From Dehalococcoidia bacterium (GTDB lineage: Bacteria; Chloroflexota; Dehalococcoidia; Lucifugimonadales; G963668185), in NCBI GenBank assembly GCA_965261935.1, contig OZ253485.1, forward strand, positions 472,388-536,387: a stretch of 64,000 nucleotides of DNA, given 5' to 3'. The notes below the pieces were generated by a model. The model searched no databases. It was given only the letters and a program-made list of their open reading frames with translations, and was not told the origin of the DNA. Position 1 is the first letter of the stretch. Every line of letters starts with the position of its first letter. The translations under genes were made by a program, and so were the position numbers. Below, one piece after another: positions 7,443 to 54,100 of this stretch.

Positions 7443-8591
7443 ATGAGGGCTGTCGTTTATAAGGAACCATTCAGCGTTGGGATCGAAGAAGTGCCCAGTC
7501 CCGAAATTCAGCATCCGAACGATGCCATCGTCAGAATCACCTCTTCATGCATATGCGGGTCTGACCTGCACATGTACGAGGGCCGCACGTCTGCGGAGCC
7601 CGGTATCGTGTTCGGGCACGAGAACATGGGCGTTATAGAGGAAGTCGGCTCCGGCGTAAAGGAGCGCAAGGTAGGGGACAGGGTGGTAATGCCCTTCAAC
7701 GTGGCCTGCGGATTCTGCAAGAACTGCCTTGGAGGATTCACTGGGTTTTGTACCACGGTCAATCCCGGCTTTGCCGGCGGCGCGTACGGCTATGTGGCGA
7801 TGGGTCCGTGGGTAGGAGGCCAGGCTGAGTACCTGCAGGTACCTTTCGTGGACTTCAACGGGCTTCCGCTACCGGAGGGAGACGAGCACGAGGCAGACTA
7901 CGCGCTACTCGCGGACATCTTCCCCACGGGCTATCACGGCGCGGAGATGGCCAGCGTAAGGCCCGGCGAGAGCGTGGCGGTTTACGGCGCCGGTCCGGTG
8001 GGCCTGATGGCCGCGTACAGCTGCCTGATCAGGGGGGCCGCGCGCGTGTTTGCAGTCGACCACGTACAGGAGCGGTTGGACATGGCCGAGTCGATCGGCG
8101 CCATTCCAGTCAACTACGACGATGTCGATCCGGTAGAGGCTATAGTTGACGCAACGGACGGCGGCACGGACAAGGGCATCGACGCGGTGGGCTATCAGGC
8201 CACCGCCCGCGGCTCCTCCGCGGCGGGCGGTGAACAGGACGAAATCCCGAACATCGTGCTGAACAACCTCATAGCGACGGTAAGGCCGACGGGCGCTATC
8301 GGGATTCCCGGCCTGTACGTCCCGTCGGACCCCGGCGGTGTCGATGAGGGGGCCAAGCGCGGCGCCCTATCGATCAACTTCGGGAAGCTGTTCGAGAAGG
8401 GGCTGAGGCTGGGCACCGGCCAATGCAACGTGAAGCAGTACAATGCCTACCTGCGCGACATGATCAGCGCCGGTAGAGCGGAACCGAGCTTCGTGGTATC
8501 ACACGAAATCGGCCTCGACGAGACGCCGGATGCCTACACGAAGTTCGATCAGCGCGTAGAGGGCTATACAAAGGTAATCATCCATCCGTAA
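7443..8591 (+). CDS. Glutathione-independent formaldehyde dehydrogenase-like zinc-dependent MDR enzyme
   Basis: CGSDLH, GHE, structural Zn motif CGFCKNC...C, LADIFPTGY, GAGPVG and DAVGYQA, typical of the FdhA-like subfamily. Confidence 0.88.
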   Translation: MRAVVYKEPFSVGIEEVPSPEIQHPNDAIVRITSSCICGSDLHMYEGRTSAEPGIVFGHENMGVIEEVGSGVKERKVGDRVVMPFNVACGFCKNCLGGFTGFCTTVNPGFAGGAYGYVAMGPWVGGQAEYLQVPFVDFNGLPLPEGDEHEADYALLADIFPTGYHGAEMASVRPGESVAVYGAGPVGLMAAYSCLIRGAARVFAVDHVQERLDMAESIGAIPVNYDDVDPVEAIVDATDGGTDKGIDAVGYQATARGSSAAGGEQDEIPNIVLNNLIATVRPTGAIGIPGLYVPSDPGGVDEGAKRGALSINFGKLFEKGLRLGTGQCNVKQYNAYLRDMISAGRAEPSFVVSHEIGLDETPDAYTKFDQRVEGYTKVIIHP

Positions 8592-8655: not shown

Positions 8656-9060
8656 ATGGCAGACATTAGTCTCGATCAGGCAGTTGCAGCGGTTGAGGCC
8701 TCAATAGCAAAGTCCAACGAGATGGGCGTTAAGATGGACATCGCCGTCGTTGATGCAGGTGCGAACCTCAAGGCGTTCGCGCGCATGGACGGCGCGTGGC
8801 TCGGGTCGATCGACATCGCTCAGATCAAGGCGCGAACATCCCGATTCTTTGATATGCCGACCGGGGCAATCGGCGGGCTGTCTCAGCCGGGAGGACCCCT
8901 GTACAACATTGAGCACTCCAATGGAGGCTTGATTACGTTCCCCGGGGGCCTACCGATCACCAATGGGGATGATGAAGTCATCGGAGCCATCGGCGTATCC
9001 GGCAGCACCGTTGAGGATGACCACGCCGTCGCCGAGGCCGGTGTCGCCGCCGTTTCCTAG
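8656..9060 (+). CDS. GlcG/HbpS (DUF336) heme-binding protein, copy 1
   Basis: [32 protein letters not shown]. Confidence 0.9.
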
Positions 9061-9287
9061 ACCTGACCTGTAATAGGAGACCAAAAGCCCACAGTAAACT
9101 AAGTTGCTGAAGACCGGGTCCTCTTGCTTGGGGCCCGGTCATCGGTTTGTCTGCCGTCCGTGAAGATTGCCGGTGGATCTCGGACATCTGGACTGTTCGG
9201 AGCCTCAACACCTGCTAACCCGGCCTCGCTATGACTAGGTTGAGGGTCGTGAACCAAAGCGATACTTAGCGAAAAGGAATTGGGATC

Positions 9288-9806
9288 GTGTCACTCTGGT
9301 CAAGATTGAAGCAGATGGTGTTGGGGAATGGGGGCCGGACTGCCGAATCGGCCACGGAGTCTATGCCGGAAAACCAGCCGGCAGAGTCGTCCGAAGACGC
9401 CGCTAGCGATATCACGCTCGACCAGGCGCACGCCGCCGTCAAGGCAGCCATCCGAAAGTCGGAAGAGATGGGCGTCAAGATGGATATAGCCGTAGTTGAC
9501 ACTGGCGTCAGACTAAAGGCGTTCGCTCGAATGGACCGTGCGTGGCGTGGTTCGATCGACATCGCCCAGAGGAAAGCGAGGACGGCACGATACTTTGACA
9601 TGCCGACCGGTGCAATTGGAGAGCTATCTCAGCCTGGGGAGGCACTGTTCCGGATCGAACACTCGAACCGCGGGCTGATCTCATTCCCCGGTGGACTCCC
9701 CATCAGGAACAGCGCCGGTGAGATTGTCGGGGCCATCGGTGTTTCCGGAAGTACCGTCGAGGACGACCACGCAGTTGCGGAGGCTGGCGTAGCGGCTGTT
9801 TCCTAG
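9288..9806 (+). CDS. GlcG/HbpS heme-binding protein, copy 2, with an N-terminal extension of about 40 aa
   Basis: Same core motifs as copy 1 and the same final 20 aa; extra leader [13 protein letters not shown] plus an acidic linker. Confidence 0.88.
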
Positions 9807-9930
9807 CCAGCACGCTGGACCCGAACCCCCAGGTAGTGCCACAGGCACGCGGGAACAGTTCGTCTATAGAGCGATCGAGTGCCTATAACCATGCGTCAAT
9901 GAACGCATTCAATAGGAAGGTTCAGGTGTC

Positions 9931-10530
9931 ATGTCATTCTGGTCATCCGTCAGACGCATCCTTGTAGGTGAACAAAGTGTAGGTGAACAAAGTCCTGCTG
10001 CGGCCGAGGGACCGGCCGCAGTTGCCGCGCCACCTCCGGCGCCGCCGGCACAGAACGGCCGGTTACCGGTGACGATCTCGATCAACGGGTCGGGCGTGTC
10101 CGATTCCGTAGAGCCCAGGCTGCTTCTGGTCCATTTCATTCGCCAGAACGCAGCCCTTACCGGTACGAAGATCGGCTGCGACACCAGCCAGTGCGGACTG
10201 TGCGTTGTACTTGAGAACGGTGTGGCCGTGAAATCGTGCACGCGGCTGGCTGTGCAGGCTAACGGAGCCGAGATCACCACCATCGAGGGTTTGGGATCGG
10301 CCGGCGAGCTCCACCCACTCCAGGAAGCGTTCTGGAACCAGCATGGGCTCCAGTGCGGTTACTGCACGCCCGGCATGATTATGGCCGCAAGCGAATTACT
10401 GAAATCCAACCCAGACCCTTCCCCCGAGGAGATCAGGCACGGCCTGGAAGGCAACCTGTGCAGATGTACCGGGTATACGAACATCGTCCGCGCAGTGCGG
10501 GCGGCAGCAGAAGCGATGAAGGGGGGCTAG
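9931..10530 (+). CDS. coxS: CO dehydrogenase-like small subunit (2x[2Fe-2S]) with an N-terminal extension
   Basis: [19 protein letters not shown] and GNLCRCTGY. Contains a 15-bp tandem repeat GTAGGTGAACAAAGT at 9964-9993. Confidence 0.92.
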
Positions 10531-10531
10531 C

Positions 10532-12886
10532 ATGGCTACGGCAACCCGTATATTCGGTTCCGGCATCCGGCGCCGGGAAGACCCGAGGCTCATTACTGGA
10601 GGCTCCAAGTACACGGATGACCTCCAATTGCCGGGCATGCTATACGCGGCGATGCTCAGAAGCCCTCACGCCCATGCCAACATTCAAAGCATAGATACGA
10701 GCGCTGCCTCCGACTGCCAGGGAGTTGCGGCGGTGTTTACCGGCAACGACACGCAGGGCGTGCTAAAAGGCCTTCCATGCGCGTGGCTGGTCCCCAACTC
10801 TGACCTCAAGACGCCCGAGCATCCTCCAATTGCAGTCGACAGGGTGCGATACGTGGGCGATGCAGTTGCGGTAGTTGTCGCGGACTCGCGGTACCATGCG
10901 GAGGATGCGCTGCAGCATATTGACGTGGACTACGAGATCCTGCCGGCGGTGGTGAATCCTGAGGAGGCACTTCAGGACGGCGCCCCTCAGGTTCACGACG
11001 ACGTTCCGAACAACCAGGCGTTCAAGTGGGTAGCAGAAGGCGGCGACGTGGACGCGGCGTTCGATAACCCTGAAGTGCTGGTGAGCGAGCGTATTGTGCA
11101 CCAGCGTCTCGTCCCGAACGCGATGGAGCCGCGGTCAGCGCTCGCGCAGTGGACGGATGCGGCTGGCGACCTGACGCTATGGAGCACTACGCAGAATCCC
11201 CACATTGCAAGGTTCCTTACGTCGGTAGTCACAGGCGTTGGCGAGCACAAGATCAGGGTTATTGCGCCTGAGGTGGGCGGAGGCTTCGGCAGCAAAATTC
11301 CGTACTACGCGGACGAGGCGATAACGGCTTTCTGCTCCATGAAGCTCGGTGTGCCGGTCAAGTGGACGGAAACACGGTCTGAGAACTTCATTGCCACGAT
11401 CCACGGCAGGGACCATGTGCAAGATGTGGAGTTGGCCGCAACAAAGGATGGTATAGTCACCGGCCTTAGGGCAACGGTCTACGCCGGCATGGGCGGCTAC
11501 CTGTCCACAGCAGCGCCCGGCATTCCAACCATATTGCACGGCCTGATGTACTGTGGGCCTTACAATATGCCCGCGGCCCGCGCCGAAGTGTATGGCGTGT
11601 TTTCCAACACCACGCCCACCGATGCCTACCGCGGCGCTGGGAGGCCAGAAGCTACGTTCCTGGTGGAGCGCATGATAGAGAAGCTGGCCGGGGAGTTGGA
11701 CATGGACCCGGTCGAGGTCAGGCGCAAGAACCTTGTGGCCAAGTTCGATGACGGTCATGACATCGTGCTTGGCCTAACGTATGACAGTGGAGACTATGAG
11801 GCCCCGCTGGACAAGGCCCTTGAGGCAGTGTGCTATGCGGACTTAAGGGCTGAACAGAAACAGGCACGCGCCGAAGGCCGCTACATGGGAATCGGTGTTT
11901 CTACGTACGTCGAGATATGCGGCCTGGGCCCGTCCCAGGTTGCGGGAGCCGTGGGTTTCCAGGGCGGACTCTGGGAGGGCGCCACGATCAAGGTCACTCC
12001 TACCGGCAAGGTCAGTGTAGCGATTGGCTCGTCGCCTCATGGCCAGGGAGAGGAGACGACCTTCGCACAAGTGGTAGCAGACGAGATCGGTGTGGACGTG
12101 GACGATGTTGAAGTGCTGCATGGGGACACCGACAACACGCCGATGGGGTGGGGCACTTACGGAAGCAGGACGACTGCGGTGTCCGGCGCGGCGCTGACGC
12201 TGGCCGTGCGCAAGGTAAAGGACAAGGCGCGGACTCTCGCAGCTCACCTGCTGGAGGCCTCCGAGGAGGACATAGAGTACGGCGACGGACGCTTCTTCGT
12301 GCGCGGGTCGCCCGACAGCGCGAAGTCCATACAGGACATCGCTCTGATGGCAAACGTGGCCTGGAACATGCCGGAAGGGATGGAGCCGGGTCTGGAGGCG
12401 CAAGCATTCTACGACCCGCCGAACTTCAGCTATCCGTTCGGAGCTCACGTAGCCATCGTCGACGTCGACCCGGACACCGGGCATGTCTCTCTGCGCAGAT
12501 ACGTTGCCGTTGACGACTGCGGCATACAGATCAATCCTATGATAGTGGAAGGCCAGGTTAGTGGAGGCGTAGTGCAGGGGGCAGGTCCGGTGCTCTGGGA
12601 GGGGGCTGTTTACGATGAGAGCGGGCAGCTTCTCACTGGCTCGATGCTCGACTACGGCCTGCCGAGAGCCGACGTGGTACCGGACATCGAGTCCCTTAGC
12701 ACCGAGACTCCGTCGGGCCATCATCCTCTTGGGGTGAAGGGCGTAGGCGAGACCGGAACGATCGCGTCCACCATCACGATCTACAATGCAGTCATGGATG
12801 CGCTCAAGCCGTTTGGTGTGGAGAAGATTGACATGCCGCTTACCCCCGAGAAGGTGTGGACGGCGATGCGGGAAAGTGGAGGTTAG
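10532..12886 (+). CDS. coxL: Form II (putative) aerobic CO dehydrogenase / molybdenum hydroxylase large subunit
   Basis: VGGGFGSK, the form II active-site motif AYRGAGR (not the form I AYxCSFR), QGEET and KGVGE. Confidence 0.92.
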   Translation: MATATRIFGSGIRRREDPRLITGGSKYTDDLQLPGMLYAAMLRSPHAHANIQSIDTSAASDCQGVAAVFTGNDTQGVLKGLPCAWLVPNSDLKTPEHPPIAVDRVRYVGDAVAVVVADSRYHAEDALQHIDVDYEILPAVVNPEEALQDGAPQVHDDVPNNQAFKWVAEGGDVDAAFDNPEVLVSERIVHQRLVPNAMEPRSALAQWTDAAGDLTLWSTTQNPHIARFLTSVVTGVGEHKIRVIAPEVGGGFGSKIPYYADEAITAFCSMKLGVPVKWTETRSENFIATIHGRDHVQDVELAATKDGIVTGLRATVYAGMGGYLSTAAPGIPTILHGLMYCGPYNMPAARAEVYGVFSNTTPTDAYRGAGRPEATFLVERMIEKLAGELDMDPVEVRRKNLVAKFDDGHDIVLGLTYDSGDYEAPLDKALEAVCYADLRAEQKQARAEGRYMGIGVSTYVEICGLGPSQVAGAVGFQGGLWEGATIKVTPTGKVSVAIGSSPHGQGEETTFAQVVADEIGVDVDDVEVLHGDTDNTPMGWGTYGSRTTAVSGAALTLAVRKVKDKARTLAAHLLEASEEDIEYGDGRFFVRGSPDSAKSIQDIALMANVAWNMPEGMEPGLEAQAFYDPPNFSYPFGAHVAIVDVDPDTGHVSLRRYVAVDDCGIQINPMIVEGQVSGGVVQGAGPVLWEGAVYDESGQLLTGSMLDYGLPRADVVPDIESLSTETPSGHHPLGVKGVGETGTIASTITIYNAVMDALKPFGVEKIDMPLTPEKVWTAMRESGG

Positions 12887-12888
12887 GG

Positions 12889-13755
12889 ATGTTCCCAGCC
12901 AGTTTCGAATACTATCGTGCGGATAGCGTAGCCGGCGCGGTAAGCATGCTGGCCGGACACGGTGACGCCAAGCTACTCGCTGGAGGCCACAGCCTTTTGC
13001 CCGTGATGAAGCTGCGCCTGGCCAGTCCGGCCGCTCTCATAGACATCGGTGGAATCTCAGAGCTGAGGGGCGTGGATGCCGTCTCAGGGCATCTTCGGAT
13101 CGGTGCGCTGACGACTCACGCGCAGGTAGCCTCTTCGGAGGCAGTCGCCGAACACTGCCCTATGCTCGTTTCCGCGGCAAAGGACATCGGGGACCCGGCG
13201 GTTCGTAACTTCGGCACGATTGGCGGCAACCTTGCCCACTCCGACCCGGCGTCGGACCCGCCAACAGTGGTGACAGCGGTTGGGGGTACGATTCACGCGA
13301 CTGGCCCGAATGGGGAGCGCTCTATAGCCGCATCCGACTTCTTCGAGGACCTGATGACGACGGCATTGGCCGACGACGAGATCATTACCTCTGTGGAGAT
13401 TCCCGCCAGGCAAAGCGGACAGGTGATGGGTTATGCCAAGCTGAAGCATCCCGCATCCCGGTACGCCGTGATCAGCGCGGGCGCCATCCTGACAGTAGCC
13501 GGCGGAGTATGCTCCGGCGCAAGCGTTGCAGTGGGCGGCATAACGCCCTCCCCCTTCAGGGCCGGATCGGTGGAGGCAGCGCTCGAGGGAATCGATCTGT
13601 CTGAGGACGCGCTGGCTGGGGCTGCTGCTGCCGTGGCGGACGACATCGGAGACTATGTGCTGGATGACGTGTTCGCGTCTGCCGAATATCGGAGCGCGAT
13701 GGCGGTTGTGTTCGTCAAGAGGGCGCTGCTGGACGCAGCGGCCAGAGCAGGATAG
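12889..13755 (+). CDS. coxM: CO dehydrogenase-like medium FAD-binding subunit
   Basis: MFPASFEY start, AGGHSLLP, VRNFGTIGGN and SAEYR. Confidence 0.92.
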   Translation: MFPASFEYYRADSVAGAVSMLAGHGDAKLLAGGHSLLPVMKLRLASPAALIDIGGISELRGVDAVSGHLRIGALTTHAQVASSEAVAEHCPMLVSAAKDIGDPAVRNFGTIGGNLAHSDPASDPPTVVTAVGGTIHATGPNGERSIAASDFFEDLMTTALADDEIITSVEIPARQSGQVMGYAKLKHPASRYAVISAGAILTVAGGVCSGASVAVGGITPSPFRAGSVEAALEGIDLSEDALAGAAAAVADDIGDYVLDDVFASAEYRSAMAVVFVKRALLDAAARAG

Positions 13756-13863: not shown

Positions 13864-14799
13864 TTGACCGACGCCGCGCTGGCGCCTGCATCCATAGACG
13901 AACTTCAGGACAGGTTGCGTGACGCCCTGTACGTGGCCGACCGCGGCCTGGCGATCTCAATCTATCTGGCCCTGAAGCTCAACCGACCACTGTTCCTGGA
14001 AGGTGAGGCCGGTGTGGGTAAGACTGAAGTCGCGAAGGTGCTGGCTTCAATCTTGGATACGGACCTGATCCGGTTGCAGTGCTATGAAGGACTCGACGTA
14101 GCTCAAGCAGTGTACGAATGGAACTACGCGCGGCAGTTGCTGGAGATACGGTTACTGGAGGCCACCGACAGTCTGAACGATCGCGACGCCGCTGAGAGAG
14201 ATATATTCAGTGACCGGTTCCTCATCAAGCGGCCGCTGCTCCAGGCGATAGATCCCGGCCGAAGTAAACCCCCGGTGCTGCTAATCGATGAGATAGACCG
14301 TGCAGACGAAGAGTTCGAGGGATTCCTTCTTGAATTGCTGTCGGACTTTCAGATCACGATTCCCGAGTTGGGAACGTATCGGGCGGAGAACCGTCCGGTG
14401 GTCGTTGTGACGTCCAACCGCACGCGAGAGGTCCACGACGCACTGAAAAGAAGGTGCCTGTACTACTGGATTGACTATCCAGACTTCCGCAAGGAACTCC
14501 AGATTGTGAGAGCCAAGGTGCCCGAAGCGTCAAGGAAGCTGTCCGAAGAGGTGACCGCATTCGTGCAGGACCTGCGGGAAGGCGAGTTGTTCAAGATTTC
14601 GGGCGTTGCGGAGACGCTGGACTGGACCGCCGCACTGGTGGCGTTGGACCAGAATGAACTGGACGCATCTGTGATAGACGATACCCTTGGCATCGTTCTG
14701 AAGTACCGGGAAGACATCGAGGCGGTCCGCGGAGAGCCCGTGCGCCACATGCTGAACCGCGTGAGAAACCGCGAGGGACGTCGCGGCCGGCGGCGATAG
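13864..14799 (+). CDS. coxD: MoxR-family AAA+ ATPase
   Basis: LEGEAGVGKT, RLQCYEG, LLIDEIDRAD, TSNRTRE and LKRRC. Confidence 0.9.
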   Translation: MTDAALAPASIDELQDRLRDALYVADRGLAISIYLALKLNRPLFLEGEAGVGKTEVAKVLASILDTDLIRLQCYEGLDVAQAVYEWNYARQLLEIRLLEATDSLNDRDAAERDIFSDRFLIKRPLLQAIDPGRSKPPVLLIDEIDRADEEFEGFLLELLSDFQITIPELGTYRAENRPVVVVTSNRTREVHDALKRRCLYYWIDYPDFRKELQIVRAKVPEASRKLSEEVTAFVQDLREGELFKISGVAETLDWTAALVALDQNELDASVIDDTLGIVLKYREDIEAVRGEPVRHMLNRVRNREGRRGRRR

Positions 14800-14818: not shown

Positions 14819-16153
14819 ATGACCGTGCAGACGTCCGGCACTGCCTCTTCCGGACACATTCTTCACAACATCGTCATGTTTGGCCGCGTACTGAGGCGGC
14901 TGGGGCTCGACGTGCACTCCGGTCGTATGCTCGATGTCGTGGACGTGCTGGGAGACGTCGGATTCAGAAGACGCCAGGACTTCGCCCTAGCGCTCCGGAC
15001 GCTTCTGGTCCACCGCCAACAGGACCTTCAACTGTTCGACGAGGCGTTCCGCGTCTTCTGGCGAGCGCCGAAGGACCGCAAATCTAGGCTGGACCTACGG
15101 AGCATAGGAGAACAGCGACGTTACAGACAGCCGCTGGTGGCACCACCCAGGGCGGATGAAGGTGTGAATGGCAAGGACGACGCCGACTCCGAAATCGAAG
15201 AAGCCGGAGACCTGATAACACTCACTCGCACTTACAGCGCGCGCGAAGTCCTGAGAGCCAAGGACTTCGCTGAGTACACCGCCTCAGAGATAGCCGAAGC
15301 CCGCCGAATCATGGAAGGTATGTCGTGGGACATGGGCACCCGCCGCACTCGCCGCTGGGAGCCTGGGAATGGGCGGGAGCAGGACATGAGGCGCATTGTC
15401 CGCCAAAACCTGAGGTTTGGCGGCGAAGTCCTAAAGTTACCCGAAAGACGGCGCAAGGTGAAGGAGAGACCGCTCGTTCTGATATGCGACATAAGCGGCT
15501 CCATGGAACGCTACACACGTATGCTGCTCCACTTCATACATACGCTCAAGGGTGGTATGAGAAACGTAGAGGCCTTCGTGTTCGCGACGAGGCTGACCAA
15601 CATTACGAACAAGTTGGCCTATCGCGGCGTGGATGACGCGGTCCGGGAGGTGTCCAAATCGGTGCCGGATTGGGCCGGCGGAACGCGAATCGGCGAAGCG
15701 CTGAAGGCTTTCAACTACCGATGGGCGAGGCGTGTTCTCGGTTGGGGCAGCGTGGCGATCGTCATTTCAGACGGCTGGGACCGCGGAGACCCGGTGTTGC
15801 TAGGAGAGGAGGCGGCACGGCTTCAACGAAGCTGTCACAGACTCGTTTGGCTGAACCCTCTGCTGGGTCCTCTGGAGTATGAACCGCTGACCAGGGGACT
15901 GCAGGCGGTGCTGCCATATGTAGACGATCACATGCCTGTTAGAAACTTGGGTAGCCTCGAGGACCTGGCCGAGCACCTGAGCAGTCTCGGGACGCGCCGC
16001 GGAGCGAGGTCACAGCAAAGGCCCGCGCCCTCCAGCATTGAACAGGGTAGTCAACAAGAAGAGGACGCTGGGACGCCGCACACGGCACTCCCGGATACAG
16101 CTCCGCCTCTGGCGTTCAGACATCCATTGTGGGGACGCCGGTCGAGGGGTTAG
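14819..16153 (+). CDS. coxE: VWA-domain CoxE-like protein
   Basis: MIDAS motif DISGSM, WAGGTRIG, ISDGWD and WLNPL, plus a low-complexity C-terminal tail. Confidence 0.9.
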   Translation: MTVQTSGTASSGHILHNIVMFGRVLRRLGLDVHSGRMLDVVDVLGDVGFRRRQDFALALRTLLVHRQQDLQLFDEAFRVFWRAPKDRKSRLDLRSIGEQRRYRQPLVAPPRADEGVNGKDDADSEIEEAGDLITLTRTYSAREVLRAKDFAEYTASEIAEARRIMEGMSWDMGTRRTRRWEPGNGREQDMRRIVRQNLRFGGEVLKLPERRRKVKERPLVLICDISGSMERYTRMLLHFIHTLKGGMRNVEAFVFATRLTNITNKLAYRGVDDAVREVSKSVPDWAGGTRIGEALKAFNYRWARRVLGWGSVAIVISDGWDRGDPVLLGEEAARLQRSCHRLVWLNPLLGPLEYEPLTRGLQAVLPYVDDHMPVRNLGSLEDLAEHLSSLGTRRGARSQQRPAPSSIEQGSQQEEDAGTPHTALPDTAPPLAFRHPLWGRRSRG

Positions 16154-16237: not shown

Positions 16238-16678
16238 TTGAAAATCAGCGGAAACTACAGCTTTAGCTCGGCCCCTGGAGTGGTCTGGGAACGGCTGCTC
16301 TCCCCGGAAGTGCTGCGCCACTGTATACCGGGATGCAAGGACTTCGTCGTCGTTGACGACTCACATTACCAGGTCTCAATGACCGTAGGGGTCGGGATGA
16401 TTCGGGGCGAGTACAGCGCCGATATAACGCTGGCAGACAGGGAGCACGAGACCTCGCTTCGAATGACCGTGGCGGGAAAGGGCTCGGCTGGCTCGATCCT
16501 GGGCGACAGCCAGCTCAGGTTGAGCGCCGCAAACGGCGGCACCTCCGTAGAACTCGACGGCAACGCGCAGGTCACCGGCGTGGTTGCCAGGGTCGGACAG
16601 CGGTTGCTGTCCTCCGTGTCCCGCAAGATGATGGACCAGTTTTTCACGTGTCTGAAGGGGCAGATTGACGGAGCGTAA
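16238..16678 (+). CDS. coxG: CoxG/SRPBCC family protein
   Basis: VWERLLSPEVLRHCIPGC and VARVGQRLL. Confidence 0.88.
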   Translation: MKISGNYSFSSAPGVVWERLLSPEVLRHCIPGCKDFVVVDDSHYQVSMTVGVGMIRGEYSADITLADREHETSLRMTVAGKGSAGSILGDSQLRLSAANGGTSVELDGNAQVTGVVARVGQRLLSSVSRKMMDQFFTCLKGQIDGA

Positions 16679-37091: not shown

Positions 37092-38780
37092 GAGCCTGTC
37101 TCAAAAGTCTGATCTGGCAACAGGTATGTCTTCCGATGTACCTTTGATGCGACATTAGTTAGGGAGATTCTGAGATGCCGCTTCGACCGATGAACAGAGA
37201 GCAGATGTGGATGTTGCCGCCAAGGCTTGACGAGCTGTTGCCGTTGGATCATCCTGCGCGATTCGTGGCCGAGTTCGTCGACGTTTTGGACAGGGGTGCG
37301 TGGGCGGAGCTTGGCGTGGCGATAGAGAGTGATTCACTGGGAGCGCCAGCCTACCACCCCCGTGCACTGTTGAGTGTGTGGCTGTACGGCTTCATGACCG
37401 GGGTGCGCTCGTGCCGGAAGCTGGAGGCGGCCTGCCGGGACCAGATACCATACCTGTGGCTGACCGGGTGGCAGCATCCGGACCACAACACCCTGTGGAG
37501 GTTCTACAAAGGGCATCGGCAAGCCATGAGGAAGCTGTTCGAGCAGACGGTGCGCACGGCGGTGGCCATGAAGCTGGTGGACCTGGCGGTCCAGGCGGTG
37601 GATGGTACAAAGGTGGCCGCCAACGCCTCAGTGAACAGAAGCTACGATGCCGAGGGACTGAGTGGGCTGCTGGGTCGGTTGGACAAGGCGATAGACGACC
37701 TTGAGGCTCAGAACGAAGCAGGAGGAGACGCTGCCGTTGCCCATCTGCCTGGTGAGTTGGCCGACAAGGAGGTCTTGAGAGAGAAGGTGAGGCAGGCGAT
37801 GGCCGACCTTGGGAGTCAGAAGCGCCATAAGCGTATCAATCTGACCGACATGGACGCCCGGCTTATGAAGGGCAGGCAGGGCATCGTGGCTGGCTACAAC
37901 GCCCAGGCTATGGTCTCGCCCACGGACACGAAAGAGGGAGCGTCCGGCATGTTGGTCACCGCTGTGGACGTGGTGGAGCAGGCCAACGACAATGCCCTGC
38001 TGGCGCCGATGGTTGAGCAGGCCGAAGAGACGACGGGGACGAGGGCGCCGATGACGTTGGCTGACGCCGGATATTTCGCCGCGAGTCACCTGGCAGAGTG
38101 CGACCGTCGAGGTCAGCAGGTGGTGGTGTCAGAGGCAAGACAACGGTTCCTCAAAGACCCGTATCACAAGGACAGATTCACCTATGACGGGCACAGCGAC
38201 AGCTTTACGTGTCCACAGGGGCAGACGCTCGAGTTCGTCCGGATACAGCATGCGAACAGAGTCCCGTTGCGCCTGTACCGGGCTTCCGGGGCCGTTTGTC
38301 AGGCATGCCCAGTCTTCAGGGTCTGTACCAAGGCCAAGGAGATTGGGCGAAGTCTGGCCATAGGGCCGCACGACGCAGTGCTACGTCGCCATCGCGCCTG
38401 GATGTCCACCGCAGCAGCCAAAGAGGCTTACGGGCTGAGAAAGCAGCTGGTCGAGCCGGTCTTCGGAATCATCAAGGAGCAACAGGGAGCACGGAGATTC
38501 CTGCTGCGTGGCCTCGCCAACGTGGCGGCCGAGTGGACCGTATTGGCCACCGCTTTCAACCTGCGCACCCTGTGGCGGGCCTGGCGCTCCCGCTCCTTCA
38601 TCCAGCTACCCCACGGGCCGAATCTCCATCCCACTTCCTGATCCCAACTGGGCCGGCAATCACCCTTCGCCAATCCATCGCCACCTTCAACTCTCCCGGC
38701 AAGGGTTGTTCAATAAATCCCACCGGCTTAATCCAACTGCTCCTACCTCCCACCCTCTACATCACTTTTGGGACAGGCTC
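37092..38780 (+). mobile_element. IS1182-family insertion sequence
   Basis: 17-bp inverted repeats GAGCCTGTCTCAAAAGT / GAGCCTGTCCCAAAAGT and a 4-bp target duplication AATA (37088-37091, 38781-38784). Confidence 0.9.
37175..38641 (+). CDS. IS1182-family transposase
   Basis: AYHPRALL, PDHNTLWRF, AVDGTKV, NLTDMDARLM, GYNAQ, LADAGY and EPVFGIIK. Confidence 0.95.
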   Translation: MPLRPMNREQMWMLPPRLDELLPLDHPARFVAEFVDVLDRGAWAELGVAIESDSLGAPAYHPRALLSVWLYGFMTGVRSCRKLEAACRDQIPYLWLTGWQHPDHNTLWRFYKGHRQAMRKLFEQTVRTAVAMKLVDLAVQAVDGTKVAANASVNRSYDAEGLSGLLGRLDKAIDDLEAQNEAGGDAAVAHLPGELADKEVLREKVRQAMADLGSQKRHKRINLTDMDARLMKGRQGIVAGYNAQAMVSPTDTKEGASGMLVTAVDVVEQANDNALLAPMVEQAEETTGTRAPMTLADAGYFAASHLAECDRRGQQVVVSEARQRFLKDPYHKDRFTYDGHSDSFTCPQGQTLEFVRIQHANRVPLRLYRASGAVCQACPVFRVCTKAKEIGRSLAIGPHDAVLRRHRAWMSTAAAKEAYGLRKQLVEPVFGIIKEQQGARRFLLRGLANVAAEWTVLATAFNLRTLWRAWRSRSFIQLPHGPNLHPTS

Positions 38781-45195: not shown

Positions 45196-48100
45196 ATGAC
45201 AATCGGGTCCTTGGCCGGGACCGATGTTCCCCCAAACACCTGCGGGCTCACTTGGCCTGCCCTGCTGCTCCTTTTGTCGGCGTCGGTCGCAATCATCTTG
45301 TCCGCTGCCTTACCCTCCTTCCATGTGGAGTCAGAGAAGTCGAACGTCGACCTCTCCCTTGCAACCGACTCATCAGACCAAGCGACAGTTAGTGAAGGCC
45401 CAGTCGGCTTCAAAGCAAGCGTTTCGCAGATCATCGGAAGATTGCCGGACGGTGATGCCACTTCGTGGCACGACGATCTTGACAAAGCCCACGTGACGGC
45501 GAGCCTGCGGGTGGTCTTCGAGCATGGGTCGGAACTGCTTGCCCGGAGATACGACGATGTCCGAGGCTCTGAGCATGATGAGGCCAAGCCCGTCAAGACA
45601 ACCGACGAGTGTCGGTCGACTCGCGACGGCTATGCGTTCGCACCTGGCGGAGACGCCCTGGAAGGCGGGCGCGAGGATAAGGCAGGTGCCGTCGCTTCTG
45701 CGAAAGGCGCCAGAGTCAACACCGGTAACGAAGTGAAGCCTTGCTTCGGGAAGCCCGCTCCCACAGAGGTGAATCCCAAGAAGAATGGCGAAGTCACCGA
45801 AGTCGTGGTATCCAAGCCGTCGCCTCTCGTGTCCAGCCTGAGCGTAATCGGGTTTGCACCCCTTGCAGCCGTTGAAGTTGAGCATGTGCGGCGCCCGAAT
45901 ACCGCCAAGAATGGAACACGCTACACGGCCCGCAACGTCGAACAGACCTGTCCCACTCATTCAGACAACATCGCGTCCCACAGATACGTGGGCGGCCCCG
46001 AGTGTAGCTTCTCCTTCTCGGCGGCCATGCTTTCCCGGAGCGGCGGCCAGTTGGCGGGGTTGAGCTTGGGCAGACGGCCTGATGAATCTCCGGAGGGCGT
46101 GCTCGAGCAACCCAAAGTGTCGAACTCGAACGGCGATGTTCCGATGGTCACCGTCAGCTTCGAGAGTGGAACGTACACCGTGGCAGAGGGTAACACTACC
46201 ACCATCAGAGTCATCCTCGACGAGGATCCCGAACACTCCGTCACCATAGCACTGGACAGGTCGCCACAGCGCGGAATCTCCTTGGCTAACTACTCAGGCG
46301 TGCCGAGCAGCATTACCTTAAATTCGGGTGACACGGAGAGGAGCTTCACTTTTTCGGCGACCAAGGAAGCGATGGGCGACGATGGCGAAGGCGTCAGAAT
46401 TTCGATCGGATCGACCTTACCCGCAGGCGTCACTGCTACAGCACCGATCCAGACAACGGTCCACATCGCCGACGACGACACTGCGGGGGTGACGTTTGAC
46501 CCAGAGACGGTGACAGTAACGGAAGGCACCTCATCCTCATACGCGGTGGTCTTGGACAGCCAGCCGACTCATGAAGTGACGGTGACGATCAACTCGCCCG
46601 CCGGAACGGAGATACTGACGCTTCAGCCTCGTCTCACATTCACGACCGATAACTGGGACATAGAGCAGACGGTGACGGTGATCGCCAACCCGGACAGAGA
46701 CTCCGTCAATGACACTGGTTCGATAACACACACGATCGATTCCTTGGACGACGACTACGACAGAATCATACCGGGTGCTGTTGAGGTGACAGTGATCGAC
46801 GACGACGTTCCAGCGGTCGTGGTGAGCTTTGCTCAGAGTTCCTACACCGTGTCTGAAGGGGGCACTACTACGGTCAAAGTGGTCATGGACGCGGACCCAG
46901 AACGTACCGTCAACATCCGCATCTTTGGGACGCTTTTGGAAGGGGCCACTAGTACCGACTACTCGGGCGTGCCCGCCGAGGTGACCTTCAACGCAGGGGA
47001 GACCGAACAGAGCTTCATATTCTCGGCTACGCAGGATGAGATAGACGACGATGGCGAAGGAGTAAGACTGAACTTAGGGACACTGCCCTTCAAGGTGTCT
47101 CTTGGAGGCACGGATGAGACGGTGGTGTCGATCACGGACGACGACGATTCAGCGGTCACGGTGAGCTTCGATATGGCCTCCTACAGCGTTGCTGAAGGCG
47201 ACGATGTGATGATCGGAGTCACCCTAAGCGCCGCCCTTGAACTCGCGGTGACGATTCCCATCGTAGTTGCACTTCAGGACGGGGCCACCAGTATCGACTA
47301 CTCAGGTGTGCCGGCCAACGTGATGTTCGCTTCGGGAGAAACCGAGCGTAGCTTCACCTTCACCGCGACACAGGATACGGAGGAGGACGACGGAGAGTCG
47401 GTAAAGTTGACCTTCGGGGAGTTGTCCGAGGCCGTATCCGAGGGGTTGAACAGCGAGGCGACGGTCACGATCGCAGACGACGATGTGCCGGACGTCGCCG
47501 TCAGCTTCGAGCAGGCATTCTACGCCGTCGAAGAGGGCGGCACGACGACTATCAGGATCATCCTGAGCTCCGACCTTCATCCTACCGTCAACGTACCGAT
47601 CACTGTGACCGAGCATGGCGGCGCGGCAAGTGCTGACTACTCAGGCGTGCCTGCCAGCGTGACCTTTGATTCAGGGGAGACGGAGCATAGGTTCACGATC
47701 ACCGCAGTCCAGGACTCACTTGATGACGACGGAGAGTCGGTGAAGCTCACTTTCGGGGAGCTGCCCAACCAGGTGACATCAGGCCCAACCGATGAGGCGA
47801 TGGTAACGGTCATTGATGACGACGTGCCGAGTGTGGCCGTCAGCTTCGAAGAGGCAAGTTACACCGTTGCAGAGGGCAGAACTACCACCATCAAGATCAC
47901 GCTGAGCGCTGACCCAGAGCGGACCGTCACAATACCGATCATCAAGACCGAGCAGGGCGGAGCCACCAGCGCCGACTACACAGGCGTGCCCGCCAGCGTG
48001 ACTTTCGATGCAGAGGAGACCGAAGAAGCCTTCACGTTCTCCGCTACCCAGGATGCATTCGACGAAGATGGCGGAGGCGTCAGGCTTTCGTTTGGCTCGA

Positions 48101-51100
48101 GTCTGCCGACAGGCGTGATCGCTGCGACTCCGAGCCAGACAACGGTCCAAATCATCGACGACGACACGGCAAGAGTGACGGTTGATCCGACGATGCTGAG
48201 AATAGCCGAGCACGCCACATCCTCGTACACCATGGTTCTGGACAGCCAGCCGACACACGAGGTGACGGTGACGATCAACTCTCCCACCGGGACGGAGATC
48301 GTAACGGTTCAACCTCGCCTCACATTCACGACGGATAACTGGGACAAAGAGCAGAGTGTGACGGTGATAGCGAACCCTGACAGAGATACTTCCGATGACT
48401 ACGGCGTGATCACACACACTGTCGATTCACTTGACGATGATTACGACAGAGTCACGCCGAGCGGTGTCGCCGTCACGGTCATTGATGACGACGTGCCGAG
48501 TGTGGCCGTCAGCTTCGAGGAGGCAAGTTACACCGTTGCAGAGGGCAGAACTACCACCATCAAGATCACGCTGAGCGCTGACCCAGAGCGGACCGTCACA
48601 ATACCGATCATCAAGACCGAGCACGGCGGTGCCACCAGCGCCGACTACACAGGCGTGCCCGCCAGCGTGACTTTCGATGCAGGGGAGGCCGAAGAAGCCT
48701 TCACGTTCTCCGCTACCCAGGATGCATTCGACGAAGACGGCGGAGGCGTCAGACTTTCGTTTGGCTCGAGTCTGCCGACAGGCGTGATCGCTGCGACTCC
48801 GAGCCAGACAACGGTCCAAATCATCGACGACGACACGGCAAGAGTGACGGTTGATCCGACGATGCTGAGAATAGCCGAGCACGCCACATCCTCGTACACC
48901 ATGGTCCTAGACAGCCAGCCAGCACACGAAGTGATAGTGACGATCAACTCACCCGTCGGGACGGAGATCGTAACGGTTCAACCTCGCCTCACCTTCACAA
49001 CTGAAGACTGGGACGAAATGCAGAGTGTGACGGTGATAGCGAACCCAGACAGAGATACCTCCGATGACTACGGCGTGATCACACACACAGTCGATTCACT
49101 TGACGACGACTACGACAGAGTCACGCCGAGCGGTGTCGCCGTCACGGTCATTGATGACGACGTGCCGGATGTGGCCGTCAGCTTCGAAGAGGGGACCTAC
49201 TCCGTCGATGAGGGTGGCACCACCACCATCAAGATCACGCTCAGCGCCGACCCAGATCGGACCGTCACTGTACCGATCACCAAGACCGACCAGGGTGGTG
49301 CCACCAGCGCCGACTACACAGGCGTGCCTGCCAGCGTCACATTTGACTCAGGGGAAACACAACACAGGTTCACCTTCACCGCAGTCCAGGACTCAGTTGA
49401 TGACGATGGAGAGTCGGTGGCGTTGAATTTCGGGATACTTCCCGGGGCCATTTCCAAGGGGATGAACAGCGAGGCAACGGTAACCATATCCGACGACGAT
49501 GTGCCAGGAGTCACCGTCAGCTTCGAGCAGCGGACCTACACCGTACAGGAGGGCAGTACCACCACGATCAAGGTGATCCTCAGCGCCGACCCCGAGCGTA
49601 TCGCCATCATACCGATCAGCAGGACCGACCAAGGCGGGGCTACCAGCGCTGATTACTCAGGTGTGCCCGCCCGCGTAACCTTCGATGCAGGCCACACCGA
49701 GCGTAGCTTCACCTTTACGGCAGCGCAGGATCTTGTGAACGACGATGGAGAGTCGGTGAAGTTGACCTTCGGGACGCTGCCCAGCCAGGTGACGGTAGGC
49801 CCTACTGATGAGGCGACGGTCACGATATCCGACGATGATGTGCCAAGCGTAACTGTTAGCTTCGAGCAGGCGACCTACGTCGTGGCCGAGGGCGGGACTA
49901 CCACCATCAAGATCACGCTCAGCGCAGACTCAGAGCGGACTGTGACAATACCGATCACTAAGACCGAGCACGGCGGTGCCACCAGCGCCGACTACACAGG
50001 CGTGCCCGCCAGCGTGACTTTCGATGCAGGGGAGGCCGAAGAAGCCTTCACGTTCTCCGCTACCCAGGATGCATTCGACGAAGACGGCGGAGGCGTCAGA
50101 CTTTCGTTTGGCTCGAGTCTGCCGACAGGCGTGATCGCTGCGACTCCGAGCCAGACAACGGTCCAAATCATCGACGACGACACGGCAAGAGTGACGGTTG
50201 ATCCGACGATGCTGAGAATAGCCGAGCACGCCACATCCTCGTACACCATGGTCCTAGACAGCCAGCCAGCACACGAAGTGATAGTGACGATCAACTCACC
50301 CGTCGGGACGGAGATCGTAACGGTTCAACCTCGCCTCACCTTCACAACTGAAGACTGGGACGAAATGCAGAGTGTGACGGTGATAGCGAACCCAGACAGA
50401 GATACCTCCGATGACTACGGCGTGATCACACACACAGTCGATTCACTTGACGACGACTACGACAGAGTCACGCCGAGCGGTGTCGCCGTCACGGTCATTG
50501 ATGACGACGTGCCGGATGTGGCCGTCAGCTTCGAAGAGGGGACCTACTCCGTCGATGAGGGTGGCACCACCACCATCAAGATCACGCTCAGCGCCGACCC
50601 AGATCGGACCGTCACTGTACCGATCACCGCAACCGACCAGGGTGGAGCCACCAGCGCCGACTACTCGGACGTGCCCGGCAGCGTGACCTTCCAAGCAGGT
50701 GACATGGAGAAGAGCTTCACCTTCACCGCAATCCAAGACTCAATCGATGACGATGGAGAGTCGGTGAGGCTGACCTTCGGGGGGCTGCCCAGCCAGGTGA
50801 CATCAGGCCCTATAGATGAGGCAACGGTAACGATATCCGACGACGATGTGCCCGGAGTCACCGTAAACTTCGAGCAGGCGACCTACGTAGTGGCAGAGGG
50901 CGGCACTACCACCATTGTGATCACGCTGAGCACTGACCCAGAGCGGACCGTCACGATACCGATCACCAAGACCGATCAGGGCGGTGCCACAAGTGCTGAC
51001 TACACAAGTGTGCCCGCCAGCCTGACTTTCGATTCAGGCCACACCGAGCACAGTTTCATCTTCACCGCAGTCCAAGACCCAGTCGATGACGACGGAGAGT

Positions 51101-54100
51101 CGGTGAAGTTGACCTTCGGGGCGCTGCCCAGCCAGGTAACATCAGGCCCGACCGATGAGGCAATGGTAACGATATCCGACGACGATGTGCCCGAAGTCAC
51201 CGTCAGCTTCGGTCAGGCAGCCTACGTCGTGTCCGAAGGCAGCACTACCACCGTCAAGATTACCTTGAGCGCCGACCCAGAGCGGACCGTCACGATACCG
51301 ATCACCAAGACCGATCAGGGCGGTGCCACAAGTGCTGACTACTCAGGAGTGCCTGGCAGCATCACATTTAACTCAGGGGAAACACAACATAGCTTCACCT
51401 TTACGGCAGCCCAGGACTCAGCGGATGACGATGGAGAGTCGGTGGCGTTGGCCTTCGGGGAGTTGCCCGAGGCCATTTCCGAGGGGATGAACAGCGAGGC
51501 AACGGTAACGATGTCCGACGACGATGTACCGGAGGTCACTATCAGCTTCGGTCAGTCAGCCTACTTCGTGGCCGAGGGCAGCACTTCTACCGTTAAGATC
51601 ACCCTCAGCGCCGACCCTGAGCGGGCCGTCCACATACCGATCACTAAGACCGAGCAGGGCGGAGCCACCAGCGCCGACTTCATAGGCGTGCCTGCCAGCG
51701 TGACCTTCGATGCGGGGGAGACCGAAGAAACCTTCACGTTCTCCGCCACAGATGACGCGATGGACGATGACGGCGAAGGCGTCAGGCTTTCGATTGGCTC
51801 GAGTCTGCCCACAGGCGTTACCGCTGCGACACCGACCCAAACGACGGTACATATCATCGACGAAGACACGGCGGGAGTGACGGTTGATCCGACGATGCTG
51901 AGAATAGCCGAGCACGCCACATCCTCGTACACCATGGTCTTGGACAGCCAGCCGACACACGAGGTGACGGTGACGATCAACTCGCCCGCCGGCACTGAGA
52001 TCTTGACGCTTCGACCTCGCCTCACATTCACGACGGATAACTGGGACATAGAGCAGAGTGTGACGGTGATAGCGAACCCAGACAGAGACACGACTGATGA
52101 CAACGGGGTCATCACACACACAGTCGATACTTTGGATGATGATTACGACAGAGTCACGCCCAGCAGTGTCGCCGTCACGGTCATTGATGACGACGTGCCA
52201 GATGTGGCCGTCAGCTTCCAAGAGGGGACCTACTCCGTCGACGAGGGCACCACCACCACCATCAAGATCACGCTGAGCGCCGACCCAGATCGGACCGTCA
52301 CTATACCGATCACCGCAACCGACCAGGGTGGAGCCACAAGTGCCGACTACACAGGCGTGCCCGCCAGCGTGACCTTCGATTCGGGTGAGACCGAAGAGGC
52401 CTTCACCTTCACCGCAATCCAGGACTCAGTTGATGACGATGGAGAGTCGGTGGCGTTGAATTTCGGGACACTTCCCGAGGCCATTTCCGAGGGGATGAAC
52501 AGCGTGGCAACGGTAACGATATCCGACGACGATGTGCCAATCGTCACCGTCCGCTTCGAGCAGCGGACCTACACCGTGGAGGAGGGCAACACCACCACGA
52601 TCAAGGTGATCCTCAGCGAAGACCCAGAGCGGACCGTCACTATACCGATCACGGCAACCGACCTTGGTGGAGCCACCAGCGCCGACTACTCGGGTTTGCC
52701 CGCCAGCATAACCATCGATGCAGGCCACACCGAGCATAGCTTCAGCTTTACGGCAACGCAGGATTCTGTGAACGACGATGGAGAGTCGGTGAAGCTGAAC
52801 TTCGGGGCGCTGCCCAGCCAGGTGACATCAGGCCCTACAGATGAAACGACGGTGACGATATCCGACGACGATGTGCCGGTCGTCACCGTAAACTTCGAGC
52901 AGGCAACCTACGCAGTAGCAGAGGGCGGCACTACCACCATTGTGATCACCCTCAGCCCCGACCCTGAGCGGACTGTCAACATACCTATCACCGCAACTGA
53001 GCAAGGCAGTGCCACCAACGCCGACTACTCAGGCGTGCCCGCCAGCGTGACGTTCGACTCAGGGGAAACACAGCGTAGCTTCACCTTCACCGCAATCCAA
53101 GACTCAATGGATGACGATGGAGAGTCGGTGGCGTTGAACTTCGGGGCACTTCCCGAGGCCATTTCCGAGGGGATGAACAGCGAGGCAACGGTCACGATAG
53201 CCGACGACGATGTACCGGAGGTCACCGTCAGCTTCGAGTATGGGACCTACGTTGTGGCCGAGGGCAGCACTACTACCGTCAAGATCACCCTCAGCCCCGA
53301 CCCTGAGCGGACTGTCAACATACCTATCACCGCAACTGAGCAAGGCAGTGCCACCAACGCCGACTACTCAGGCGTGCCCGCCAGCGTGACGTTCGACTCA
53401 GGGGAAACACAGCGTAGCTTCACCTTCACCGCAATCCAAGACTCAGTGGATGACGATGGAGAGTCGGTGGCGTTGAACTTCGGGGCACTTCCCGAGGCCA
53501 TTTCCGAGGGGATGAACAGCGAGGCAACGGTCACGATAGCCGACGACGATGTACCGGAGGTCACCGTCAGCTTCGAGTATGGGACCTACGTTGTGGCCGA
53601 GGGCAGCACTACTACCGTCAAGATCACGCTCAGCGTCGACCCGGAGCGGACCGTCACCATACCGATCACTGCGACCGAGCAAGGCGGTGCCACCAGCGCC
53701 GATTACTCAGGCGTTCCCACCAGCGTGACCTTCCAAGCAGGTGACATGGAGAATAGCTTCACCTTCACCGCGGTCCAGGACTCAGTCGATGACGACAGAG
53801 AGATCGTGAGGCTGACCTTCGGGGAGCTACCCAGCCAGGTGACATCAGGCCCTACAGATGAGGCGACGGTCACGATATCCGACGACGATGTGCCGAGCGT
53901 CACCGTAAACTTCGAGCAGGCGACCTACGCAGTGGCAGAGGGCAGCACTACCACCATCAAGATCTCGCTGAGCGCCGACCCAGAGCGGACTGTCACTATA
54001 CCGATCACCAAGACCGAGCACGGCGGTGCGGTAAGCGCCGACTACTCAGGTGTGCCTGGCAGCGTCACATTTAACTCAGGGGAAACACAACACAGTTTCA

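Follow-up and report, generated by a model that had tools for sequence, protein, structure and literature searches.

Why would two neighbouring bacterial genes, whose products have unrelated folds, begin with the same short peptide? The question is raised by a 64,000-nucleotide stretch of DNA from a Dehalococcoidia bacterium (contig OZ253485.1, positions 472,388 to 536,387 of the forward strand; hereafter 'the window', in the numbering of which all positions are given unless another genome is named), in which GlcG2, a DUF336 protein, and CoxS, the [2Fe-2S] subunit of a molybdenum hydroxylase, carry a matching 13-residue N-terminal leader. The host genome is a single contig of 3.23 Mb with 60.6% G+C and is 96% complete; its closest named relatives are the Dehalococcoidia metagenome-assembled chromosomes OZ220745.1 and OZ250142.1.

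The GlcG2 open reading frame (ORF) occupies positions 9288–9806 of the forward strand, with a GTG start and 172 codons for amino acids (aa), and the CoxS ORF occupies positions 9931–10530 of the same strand, with an ATG start and 199 aa. Each start is the earliest possible in its ORF, an in-frame stop lying 6 codons upstream for GlcG2 and 5 codons upstream for CoxS. The DNA of the two start regions, GTGTCACTCTGGTCA in GlcG2 and ATGTCATTCTGGTCA in CoxS, is identical at 13 of 15 positions. Both N-termini were confirmed from the ORFs, and the common leader that an earlier sequence-only reading of the window had pointed out is therefore real. Each gene has the same order of parts:

9273–9279, forward strand: Shine–Dalgarno (SD)-like AAAGGAA of GlcG2, 8 nt before the GTG; kept as GAAAAGGAG/A in the related loci L002, L090 and L087
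9288–9326, forward strand: GlcG2 leader, residues 1–13, predicted amphipathic cationic helix; kept in P0121, P0122 and P0124/L087
9327–9407, forward strand: GlcG2 linker, residues 14–40, 27 aa, acidic (net charge −5), Ser/Ala/Glu-rich, predicted disordered
9408–9806, forward strand: GlcG2 EfgA-like domain (residues 41–172) and stop codon; PF03928 (DUF336/HbpS-like) over residues 42–169
9914–9920, forward strand: SD-like AGGAAGG of CoxS, 10 nt before the ATG; cAGGAAGG is kept in 8 of 8 orthologous loci
9931–9969, forward strand: CoxS leader, residues 1–13, predicted amphipathic cationic helix, nearly invariant in 12 orthologue clusters
9970–10065, forward strand: CoxS linker, residues 14–45, 32 aa, Pro/Ala/Glu-rich, predicted disordered from sequence and from AlphaFold2 (AF2)
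10066–10530, forward strand: folded part of CoxS, two [2Fe-2S] domains (PF00111/PF01799); the structures 4zoh_C, 1ffu, 1n5w and 8uem in the Protein Data Bank (PDB) align from here

Leader and linker precede everything that is recognizable as a folded domain. Among the Pfam matches, PF03928 sets in at residue 42 of GlcG2 and Fer2/Fer2_2 at about residue 46–50 of CoxS, and the alignment with every solved CoxS homologue begins only at query residue 43–51. The two linkers, put at about 25–30 aa in the sequence-only reading, measure 27 aa and 32 aa; its further statements, that the neighbouring GlcG1 (8656–9060) has no leader and that typical CoxS proteins begin at the ferredoxin strand, hold as well, typical database homologues of CoxS being 155–160 aa long. 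Across the leader-bearing proteins the linker varies from 27 to 61 aa and either carries a net charge of −2 to −11 or is Pro/Ala-rich; for GlcG2 it is 27 aa in the window vs. 43 aa in L087, in frame in both. At the helix/linker junction of CoxS the window also holds a perfect 2 × 15-bp tandem duplication (GTAGGTGAACAAAGT; 9964–9993, forward strand), which is found in this genome only; its absence from all orthologues indicates a recent in-frame slippage event.

Are the leaders translated, and are they maintained as peptides? Twelve clusters of CoxS orthologues share MSFWS[ST][VL][RK][RK][IM]L[VIL]G[ED]. At the eight loci with DNA, codons 2–14 of coxS contain 4, 1 and 9 variable sites at codon positions 1, 2 and 3, respectively, and L11 is encoded by four synonymous codons. 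In CoxS, the conserved I-x-I-N-G strand follows the leader ATG after 129, 132, 135, 144, 150 or 222 nt, always in frame and without stops. The GlcG2 leader, the GTG start and the SD are all kept in P0121, P0122, L002, L090 and L087. The proteins of the window and of L087 are about 67–69% identical overall; between them, the leaders are as conserved as the folded cores, and the linkers cannot be aligned. Four residues, S2, W4, S5 and G13, never vary among the copies of the two genes. From the third-position bias, the conserved SD and the in-frame changes in linker length, we conclude, on the evidence of sequence comparison, that the leaders are translated and are under selection as a functional peptide carried on a spacer. 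The sequence-only reading had left room for true starts further downstream, against which the same three observations speak, and for leaders missing from orthologues, whereas the orthologues of both CoxS and GlcG2 retain them.

An alternative explanation of the shared 5′ ends is that they constitute an RNA or DNA element at the start codons, serving shared translational control, and that the extensions are not functional peptides or that translation starts downstream (at GTG 10066 for CoxS; at ATG codon 10 or 26 for GlcG2). An in-frame GTG is present at 10066, could start a leaderless CoxS and would give it the canonical N-terminus, and the database entry P0123 was called from an internal Met. 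In addition, bases −2 to +15 (TC[G/A]TGTCA[C/T]TCTGGTCA; 9286–9302 and 9929–9945) are nearly invariant in both genes across all 12 sequences compared (the window plus L002, L090, L001, L079, L088, L089 and L087). These near-invariant bases include synonymous sites of Ser2 (TCA), Phe3 (TTC) and Ser5 (TCA), and codons 6–13 vary synonymously. Past +15, however, the DNA diverges while residue classes are kept, the substitutions are third-position or conservative, the frame stays open through six linker lengths, and conservation of the leader matches that of the folded domains. We consider it very unlikely that an RNA or DNA element is the whole explanation; the translation-initiation region may be under an additional constraint at the nucleotide level, superimposed on conservation of the peptide.

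The second question is whether the two leaders have a common origin. The proteome search that had been suggested with the sequence-only reading, run here as a six-frame regular-expression scan of the 3.23-Mb genome, returned the GlcG2 and CoxS ORFs only, and relaxed patterns applied to the same genome added nothing credible. With a 16-column leader profile, CoxS scored 40 bits (E 2e-9) and GlcG2 scored 31 bits (E 1e-6); the next matches in the genome had E values of 0.8–5. The 5′ DNA ends of GlcG2 and CoxS align better than shuffled sequences, with p of about 0.003 in the window over TC[G/A]TGTCA[C/T]TCTGGTCA, and in L087 with a 48-nt alignment from the SD (AAAGGA) to codon 10, the score of which was reached by 0 of 2000 shuffles. 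Because this DNA similarity exceeds that of shuffles, we conclude that the two leaders are, as judged from their 5′ ends, homologous and not convergent. In a tree of DUF336 cores, leader-bearing GlcG2 forms one clade (support 96/94) with longer branches, and GlcG1 falls among leaderless homologues; a single GlcG2 clade implies one duplication and one leader acquisition before the window and L087 lineages split.

Outside this genome, the leader has a narrow distribution. A DNA pattern scan of 60 relatives gave matches in four genomes, all of the same genus. Beyond the genus, the gene order and both leaders (MSFWSSLKRMLLGEDQ and MSFWSTLKRILMGEQS) recur on L087, a metagenomic contig of a more distant lineage. 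A search with the leader-plus-linker profile of 1.84 billion representative proteins, which has limited sensitivity with one representative per cluster, found no other family, the matches being truncated copies of GlcG2 and CoxS plus spurious repeat-array ORFs. Among database proteins outside the window, P0244, P0245 and P0247 consist of FSILKRIVVGET repeats with variable spacers of about 8 to 30+ residues and look like translated CRISPR-like DNA repeat arrays called as genes. A word-index query with five concatenated leader variants against a 5.8-billion-protein index gave nothing at E ≤ 10 and, having missed even the true orthologues, is uninformative; a literature search on N-terminal extensions of CoxS gave nothing relevant. 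In G001 (OZ250142.1), the whole GlcG2-CoxS locus occurs twice, at about 46.7 kb and 2,928.6 kb of that chromosome, and the leader DNA of the two copies is identical; judging by their spacing, they are better explained by a circular assembly whose ends overlap by about 96 kb than by a true duplication.

The distribution also bears on the target of the leader. In G002 (= L001), in G003 (= L079) and in contigs L088 and L089, an alcohol dehydrogenase gene is followed directly by leader-bearing coxS, with no GlcG genes at the locus, and a leader search of the whole genomes G002 and G003 found no other copies. The persistence of the CoxS leader in the absence of GlcG genes indicates that the target of the leader is not GlcG2. 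The sequence-only reading had proposed that the leaders co-localise a heme protein, GlcG2, with the Cox complex; as a primary purpose this finds no support, since four relatives keep the CoxS leader with no GlcG at the locus. The confinement of the leader to two proteins of a narrow lineage, together with its retention by CoxS where GlcG is lacking, favours a generic target.

What generic target might such a peptide have? Its physical properties suggest one candidate. Mean hydrophobicity is 0.67 for the GlcG2 leader and 0.70 for the CoxS leader (0.67–0.76 overall), the hydrophobic moment is 0.40 and 0.45, respectively (0.40–0.47 overall), the charge is +2, and the HeliQuest-type discriminant D is 1.04–1.10, above 0.68. 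On a helical projection, F/L3, W4, V/L7, I/M10 and L/V11 form a hydrophobic face with Arg/Lys on the opposite face, and G13 ends a helix of about three turns. Of the residue pattern given in the sequence-only reading, the hydrophobic positions 3, 4, 7, 10 and 11 stand; the basic residues (R8 and R9, or R6 and K8) lie not in flanks but inside the helix, on its polar face. As an internal yardstick we used FtsA, since SepF and MinD genes were not found in the genome: the FtsA C-terminus has a Ser/Gly/Asn linker followed, where FtsA proteins carry their membrane-targeting helix, by GLISGVVGQIKRLLPTS, the best 13-mer of which has a hydrophobicity of 0.68, a moment of 0.68 and a charge of +2. AF2 places a helix at residues 4–11 followed by coil in both proteins; with shallow alignments the models are of low confidence, and only the secondary-structure call was used. 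According to the reading that we favour, and to which we give somewhat less than an even chance, the shared leader would be an in-plane membrane anchor of the MinD/FtsA/SepF/Noc type, carried on a flexible tether and lying on the inner membrane face. A membrane-targeting helix was one of the options of the sequence-only reading: the helix-plus-linker build, the hydrophobicity and the charge fit it, and the amphipathic moment is moderate, not significantly above that of shuffles.

Membrane association of another kind, by an export signal of the twin-arginine translocation (Tat) or Sec type (possibly with one protein as a hitch-hiker) or by a transmembrane anchor, as in periplasmic PaoA, can be judged from the same residues. 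The sequence SVRRIL near the CoxS N-terminus and the slight extension of alignments with the PaoA model and structure into the leader-linker region would be in keeping with export. However, in place of the RR pair GlcG2 has KQ and the two L087 proteins have KR, 5 of 12 sequences having such a replacement; the maximum 19-residue Kyte-Doolittle mean in the first 75 residues is no higher than 0.78, leaving no hydrophobic core; Glu or Asp follows the helix directly; and none of the accessory proteins carries a signal. Export or a transmembrane anchor is hardly credible: with a twin arginine that is not conserved and no hydrophobic core, the Tat, Sec and transmembrane readings were ruled out on sequence.

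A terminal helix on a linker is also the build of peptides that load cargo into a bacterial microcompartment (BMC) or an encapsulin nanocompartment, the other option of the sequence-only reading. BMC peptides likewise combine a terminal amphipathic helix with a poorly conserved linker, and some DUF336 proteins, such as PduO, reside in aldehyde-handling microcompartments (PMC8153426). Against this, searches of the 96% complete genome turned up neither a BMC shell gene (PF00936) nor a family-1 encapsulin gene (PF04454), with positive controls that responded and with encapsulin families 2–4 outside the search; moreover, the helix has about 11 residues vs. about 18 in typical encapsulation peptides, and only two proteins carry it. 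The encapsulation option is thus highly improbable.

Which proteins, then, would the leader bring to a membrane? The genes around the two leaders encode, in order:

7443–8591, forward strand: Zn-dependent alcohol dehydrogenase, formaldehyde-dehydrogenase-like, first gene of the conserved cluster (PF08240/PF00107)
8656–9060, forward strand: GlcG1, leaderless EfgA-like DUF336 protein, 134 aa; PF03928 over residues 4–131
10532–12886, forward strand: CoxL-like molybdopterin subunit, form-II, with an AYRGAGR loop (translation, Pfam)
12889–13755, forward strand: CoxM-like FAD subunit (PF00941/PF03450)
13864–14799, forward strand: CoxD-like MoxR AAA+ ATPase (Pfam)
14819–16153, forward strand: CoxE-like VWA protein (Pfam)
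16238–16678, forward strand: CoxG-like SRPBCC protein, 146 aa, TTG start, no C-terminal membrane anchor; PF06240 over residues 10–143 of 146

GlcG1 and GlcG2 match EfgA (PDB 6bws) over the whole domain, with E values of 1e-49 and 4.7e-46, respectively. The pocket residues R42, K57, S114 and D121 of EfgA correspond to R43, K58, S115 and D122 of GlcG1 and to R81, K96, S153 and D160 of GlcG2; the last four are invariant among GlcG2 orthologues, and GlcG2 evolves faster than GlcG1. EfgA itself is a tetrameric formaldehyde sensor of Methylorubrum extorquens (PDB 6bws/6c0z; PMC8153426). By their similarity, GlcG1 and GlcG2 are close relatives of this sensor, and the label 'heme protein' given to GlcG2 in the sequence-only reading is doubtful in view of the close similarity to EfgA and the conserved formaldehyde-pocket residues.

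The Cox enzyme has the gene order S-L-M and the loop AYRGAGR, not the M-S-L order and the AYxCSFR loop of form-I CO dehydrogenases, and its CoxL scores below the cut-offs of both the CO_dehy_Mo_lg model (TIGR02416) and the glyceraldehyde-dehydrogenase alpha model. We therefore regard it as a form-II molybdenum hydroxylase and not as a proven CO dehydrogenase; the earlier view of the Cox complex as a CO dehydrogenase is not supported, given the AYRGAGR loop, the S-L-M order and the missed TIGR02416 cut-off. In the ORF list, coxM begins at GTG 12856, overlapping coxL; the L087 orthologue has 287 aa and starts 3 nt after coxL, and the true start of coxM is likely ATG 12889, 3 nt past the coxL stop. 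The best NCBIfam match of the alcohol dehydrogenase (7443–8591) is TIGR02819, fdhA_non_GSH (glutathione-independent), at 341 bits, below the 637-bit cut-off. The alcohol dehydrogenase gene lies directly upstream of GlcG1 or CoxS in all relatives, and sarcosine-oxidase-like genes follow the cox cluster. The cluster plausibly handles formaldehyde or other aldehydes.

CoxG, the last protein of the set, deserves separate comment. Its C-terminal tails were compared in 23 genomes, in a table of which part is unusable, the minus-strand loci not having been re-oriented. Beside cox clusters elsewhere, CoxG has a linker and a transmembrane helix in Anaerolineae/Ardenticatenaceae (L096, L103 and L117) and a short basic tail, HGILRDYLRGKK, in Latescibacterota (L104, L105 and L107). 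The idea of an anchor swap, with the CoxS leader replacing the CoxG transmembrane helix, was not borne out by co-occurrence: beside leaderless CoxS, CoxG is found both with and without an anchor.

For molybdenum CO dehydrogenase (Mo-CODH), published work defines the problem that a membrane leash on CoxS might address. Mo-CODH must reach membrane quinone and is membrane-associated despite having no membrane-binding region of its own (PMC12202499). In M. smegmatis, CoxG consists of a soluble SRPBCC domain, a flexible linker and a C-terminal transmembrane helix (PMC12202499).

The leader module arose once and was copied between coxS and an efgA/glcG paralogue that stems from a duplication, taking with it bases adjacent to the ribosome-binding site. 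According to the hypothesis of an in-plane membrane anchor, residues 2–12 would fold as a short amphipathic helix lying in the plane of the cytoplasmic membrane face, and the disordered linker of 27–61 residues, acidic or Pro/Ala-rich, would serve as a leash. Binding by a single helix would be weak, and attachment would come from avidity, with two helices on each (CoxSLM)2 and four on each EfgA-like tetramer, these oligomeric states being taken from relatives (the EfgA tetramer, PMC8153426; the Mo-CODH dimer of CoxSML, PMC12202499). The form-II hydroxylase would thereby be held close to the quinone pool, and the aldehyde- or formaldehyde-sensor-like paralogue would be placed at the same membrane surface. 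In this enzyme family, the N-terminal ferredoxin-like domain of the small subunit adjoins the FAD subunit, which is the electron exit. In the enzyme of the window, electrons would leave through the FAD in CoxM, beside the N-terminal domain of CoxS, with the anchorless CoxG of the same cluster at hand. We infer helix formation, membrane binding, avidity and physiological purpose alike.

Several observations weigh against a membrane anchor. The hydrophobic moments are not significantly above those of same-residue shuffles (p of 0.07 and 0.16), the helix is short, at about three turns, and the AF2 confidence is low, with pLDDT of 41–52 in the leader and of about 41–49 (GlcG2) or 32–38 (CoxS) in the linker. 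Classic membrane-targeting sequences have charges of +3 to +4, vs. +2 for the leader. Anchorless CoxG occurs in many leaderless cox clusters too, and next to the nearest leaderless clusters CoxG is missing altogether. EfgA reportedly resides in the cytoplasm and acts on translation (PMC8153426), so that a membrane-held paralogue would have no known role. Finally, with S2, W4, S5 and G13 invariant, the constraint goes beyond what physico-chemical properties alone would impose, and a specific docking motif would fit it as well.

The last point leads to the possibility, less probable than a membrane anchor but one to be taken seriously, that the leader is a docking peptide, a short linear motif recognized by a shared protein partner, or that the helices associate with each other. 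Candidate partners are the lipid-type cavity of CoxG, the surface of CoxL or CoxM, and CoxD/CoxE (MoxR/VWA) as a tag-recognising maturation chaperone; in the self-association variant, the helices would bundle and unite the enzyme and the EfgA-like tetramer in one assembly. In addition to the four invariant residues, docking would account for a peptide that is mostly hydrophobic and whose amphipathicity does not significantly exceed that of shuffles; copying of one tag onto a second protein of the cluster is what co-assembly predicts; and no leader-bearing cluster that was seen far enough downstream lacks CoxD, CoxE or CoxG. On the other hand, the conserved cluster has no lineage-specific partner gene, CoxD, CoxE and CoxG serve leaderless CoxS too, in many lineages, GlcG2 is excluded as the target by the loci at which the CoxS leader persists in its absence, and a tag on two proteins of a narrow lineage would need a co-evolved receptor, to which nothing points.

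A broader proposal, which we consider unlikely, is that the leader is a lineage-specific co-localisation tag that gathers the aldehyde-oxidising molybdenum enzyme and the formaldehyde-sensor paralogue at a membrane patch or on an unrecognised protein scaffold, as a metabolon for formaldehyde: the EfgA-like protein, held there by its tether, would sense or buffer aldehyde at the place of its production or consumption. In that case the tag would be a transferable module for targeting, already moved between genes along with its translation-initiation region.

Two further observations concern the window away from the leaders. An ORF of 423 aa (LSVWLYGFMTGVRSCRKLEAACRDQIPYLW...) at 37175–38641 (TTG at about 37370) has six identical copies in the genome and is probably an active insertion-sequence transposase. 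Positions 45196–59595 of the forward strand form one uninterrupted ORF of 4,799 aa.

If the leader is a membrane anchor, what follows? The hand-over of electrons from CoxSLM to quinone has been explained only recently, through membrane-anchored CoxG; a CoxS with a membrane leash of its own would be a second, independent route to quinone and a handle on the physiology of form-II enzymes. A paralogue of an EfgA-type sensor at the membrane, encoded beside formaldehyde-dehydrogenase-like and sarcosine-oxidase-like genes, would hint at spatially organised formaldehyde handling in marine-type Dehalococcoidia. The leader would also be an instance of a targeting peptide that was copied from one gene into an unrelated one along with its ribosome-binding region, and the 13-mer with its linker is small enough for direct testing and for reuse as a tag. 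The reach of these implications is one genus-level lineage plus one relative, with a function that we infer.

How does the leader-bearing pair compare with known systems? The form-II CoxSLM-like hydroxylases, including the Sulfolobus-type glyceraldehyde oxidoreductase (PDB 4zoh), share with it the S-L-M order, the AYRGAGR loop and CoxD, CoxE and CoxG, and 4zoh_C is the closest solved small subunit; the difference is the helix-linker extension, which, outside this lineage, neither the solved homologues nor the close ones in databases possess. EfgA shares with GlcG1 and GlcG2 the whole domain and the proposed pocket, and a formaldehyde-dehydrogenase-like gene adjoins here; in contrast, EfgA has no leader and is cytoplasmic, GlcG2 is a paralogue that evolves faster and carries the leader, and a sensor role in this cluster is predicted. 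BMC encapsulation peptides (PduP, PduD and EutC) likewise place an N-terminal amphipathic helix and a linker on unrelated enzymes of one pathway, but here there are no shell genes, the helix is shorter and there would be only two cargo proteins.

M. smegmatis CoxG belongs to the same enzyme system and answers the same problem, that of connecting soluble CoxSLM to quinone, with a membrane element on a flexible linker (PMC12202499); here, by contrast, the predicted element is an in-plane helix at the CoxS N-terminus, CoxG is a bare 146 aa, and there is no strict either/or pattern across lineages. The closest parallels in build are the C-terminal helices of MinD and FtsA, the helices of SepF and Noc, and the N-terminal helix of Gram-negative MreB, in which a terminal helix sets an aromatic/aliphatic face against a Lys/Arg face, often ends in Gly, is joined to the protein by a flexible, often acidic linker, and gains avidity from oligomeric carriers. 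The leader equals the FtsA tail of its own genome in hydrophobicity and charge. It is less cationic and more hydrophobic than MinD/FtsA-type tags, taking as reference the peptides of other species in the literature. It differs from them also in having no sequence homology to them and in being carried not by division or segregation proteins but by a redox subunit and a sensor-like protein. The leader would thus be a variant of the terminal amphipathic membrane-targeting helix, new on a molybdenum-hydroxylase subunit and on an EfgA-like protein.

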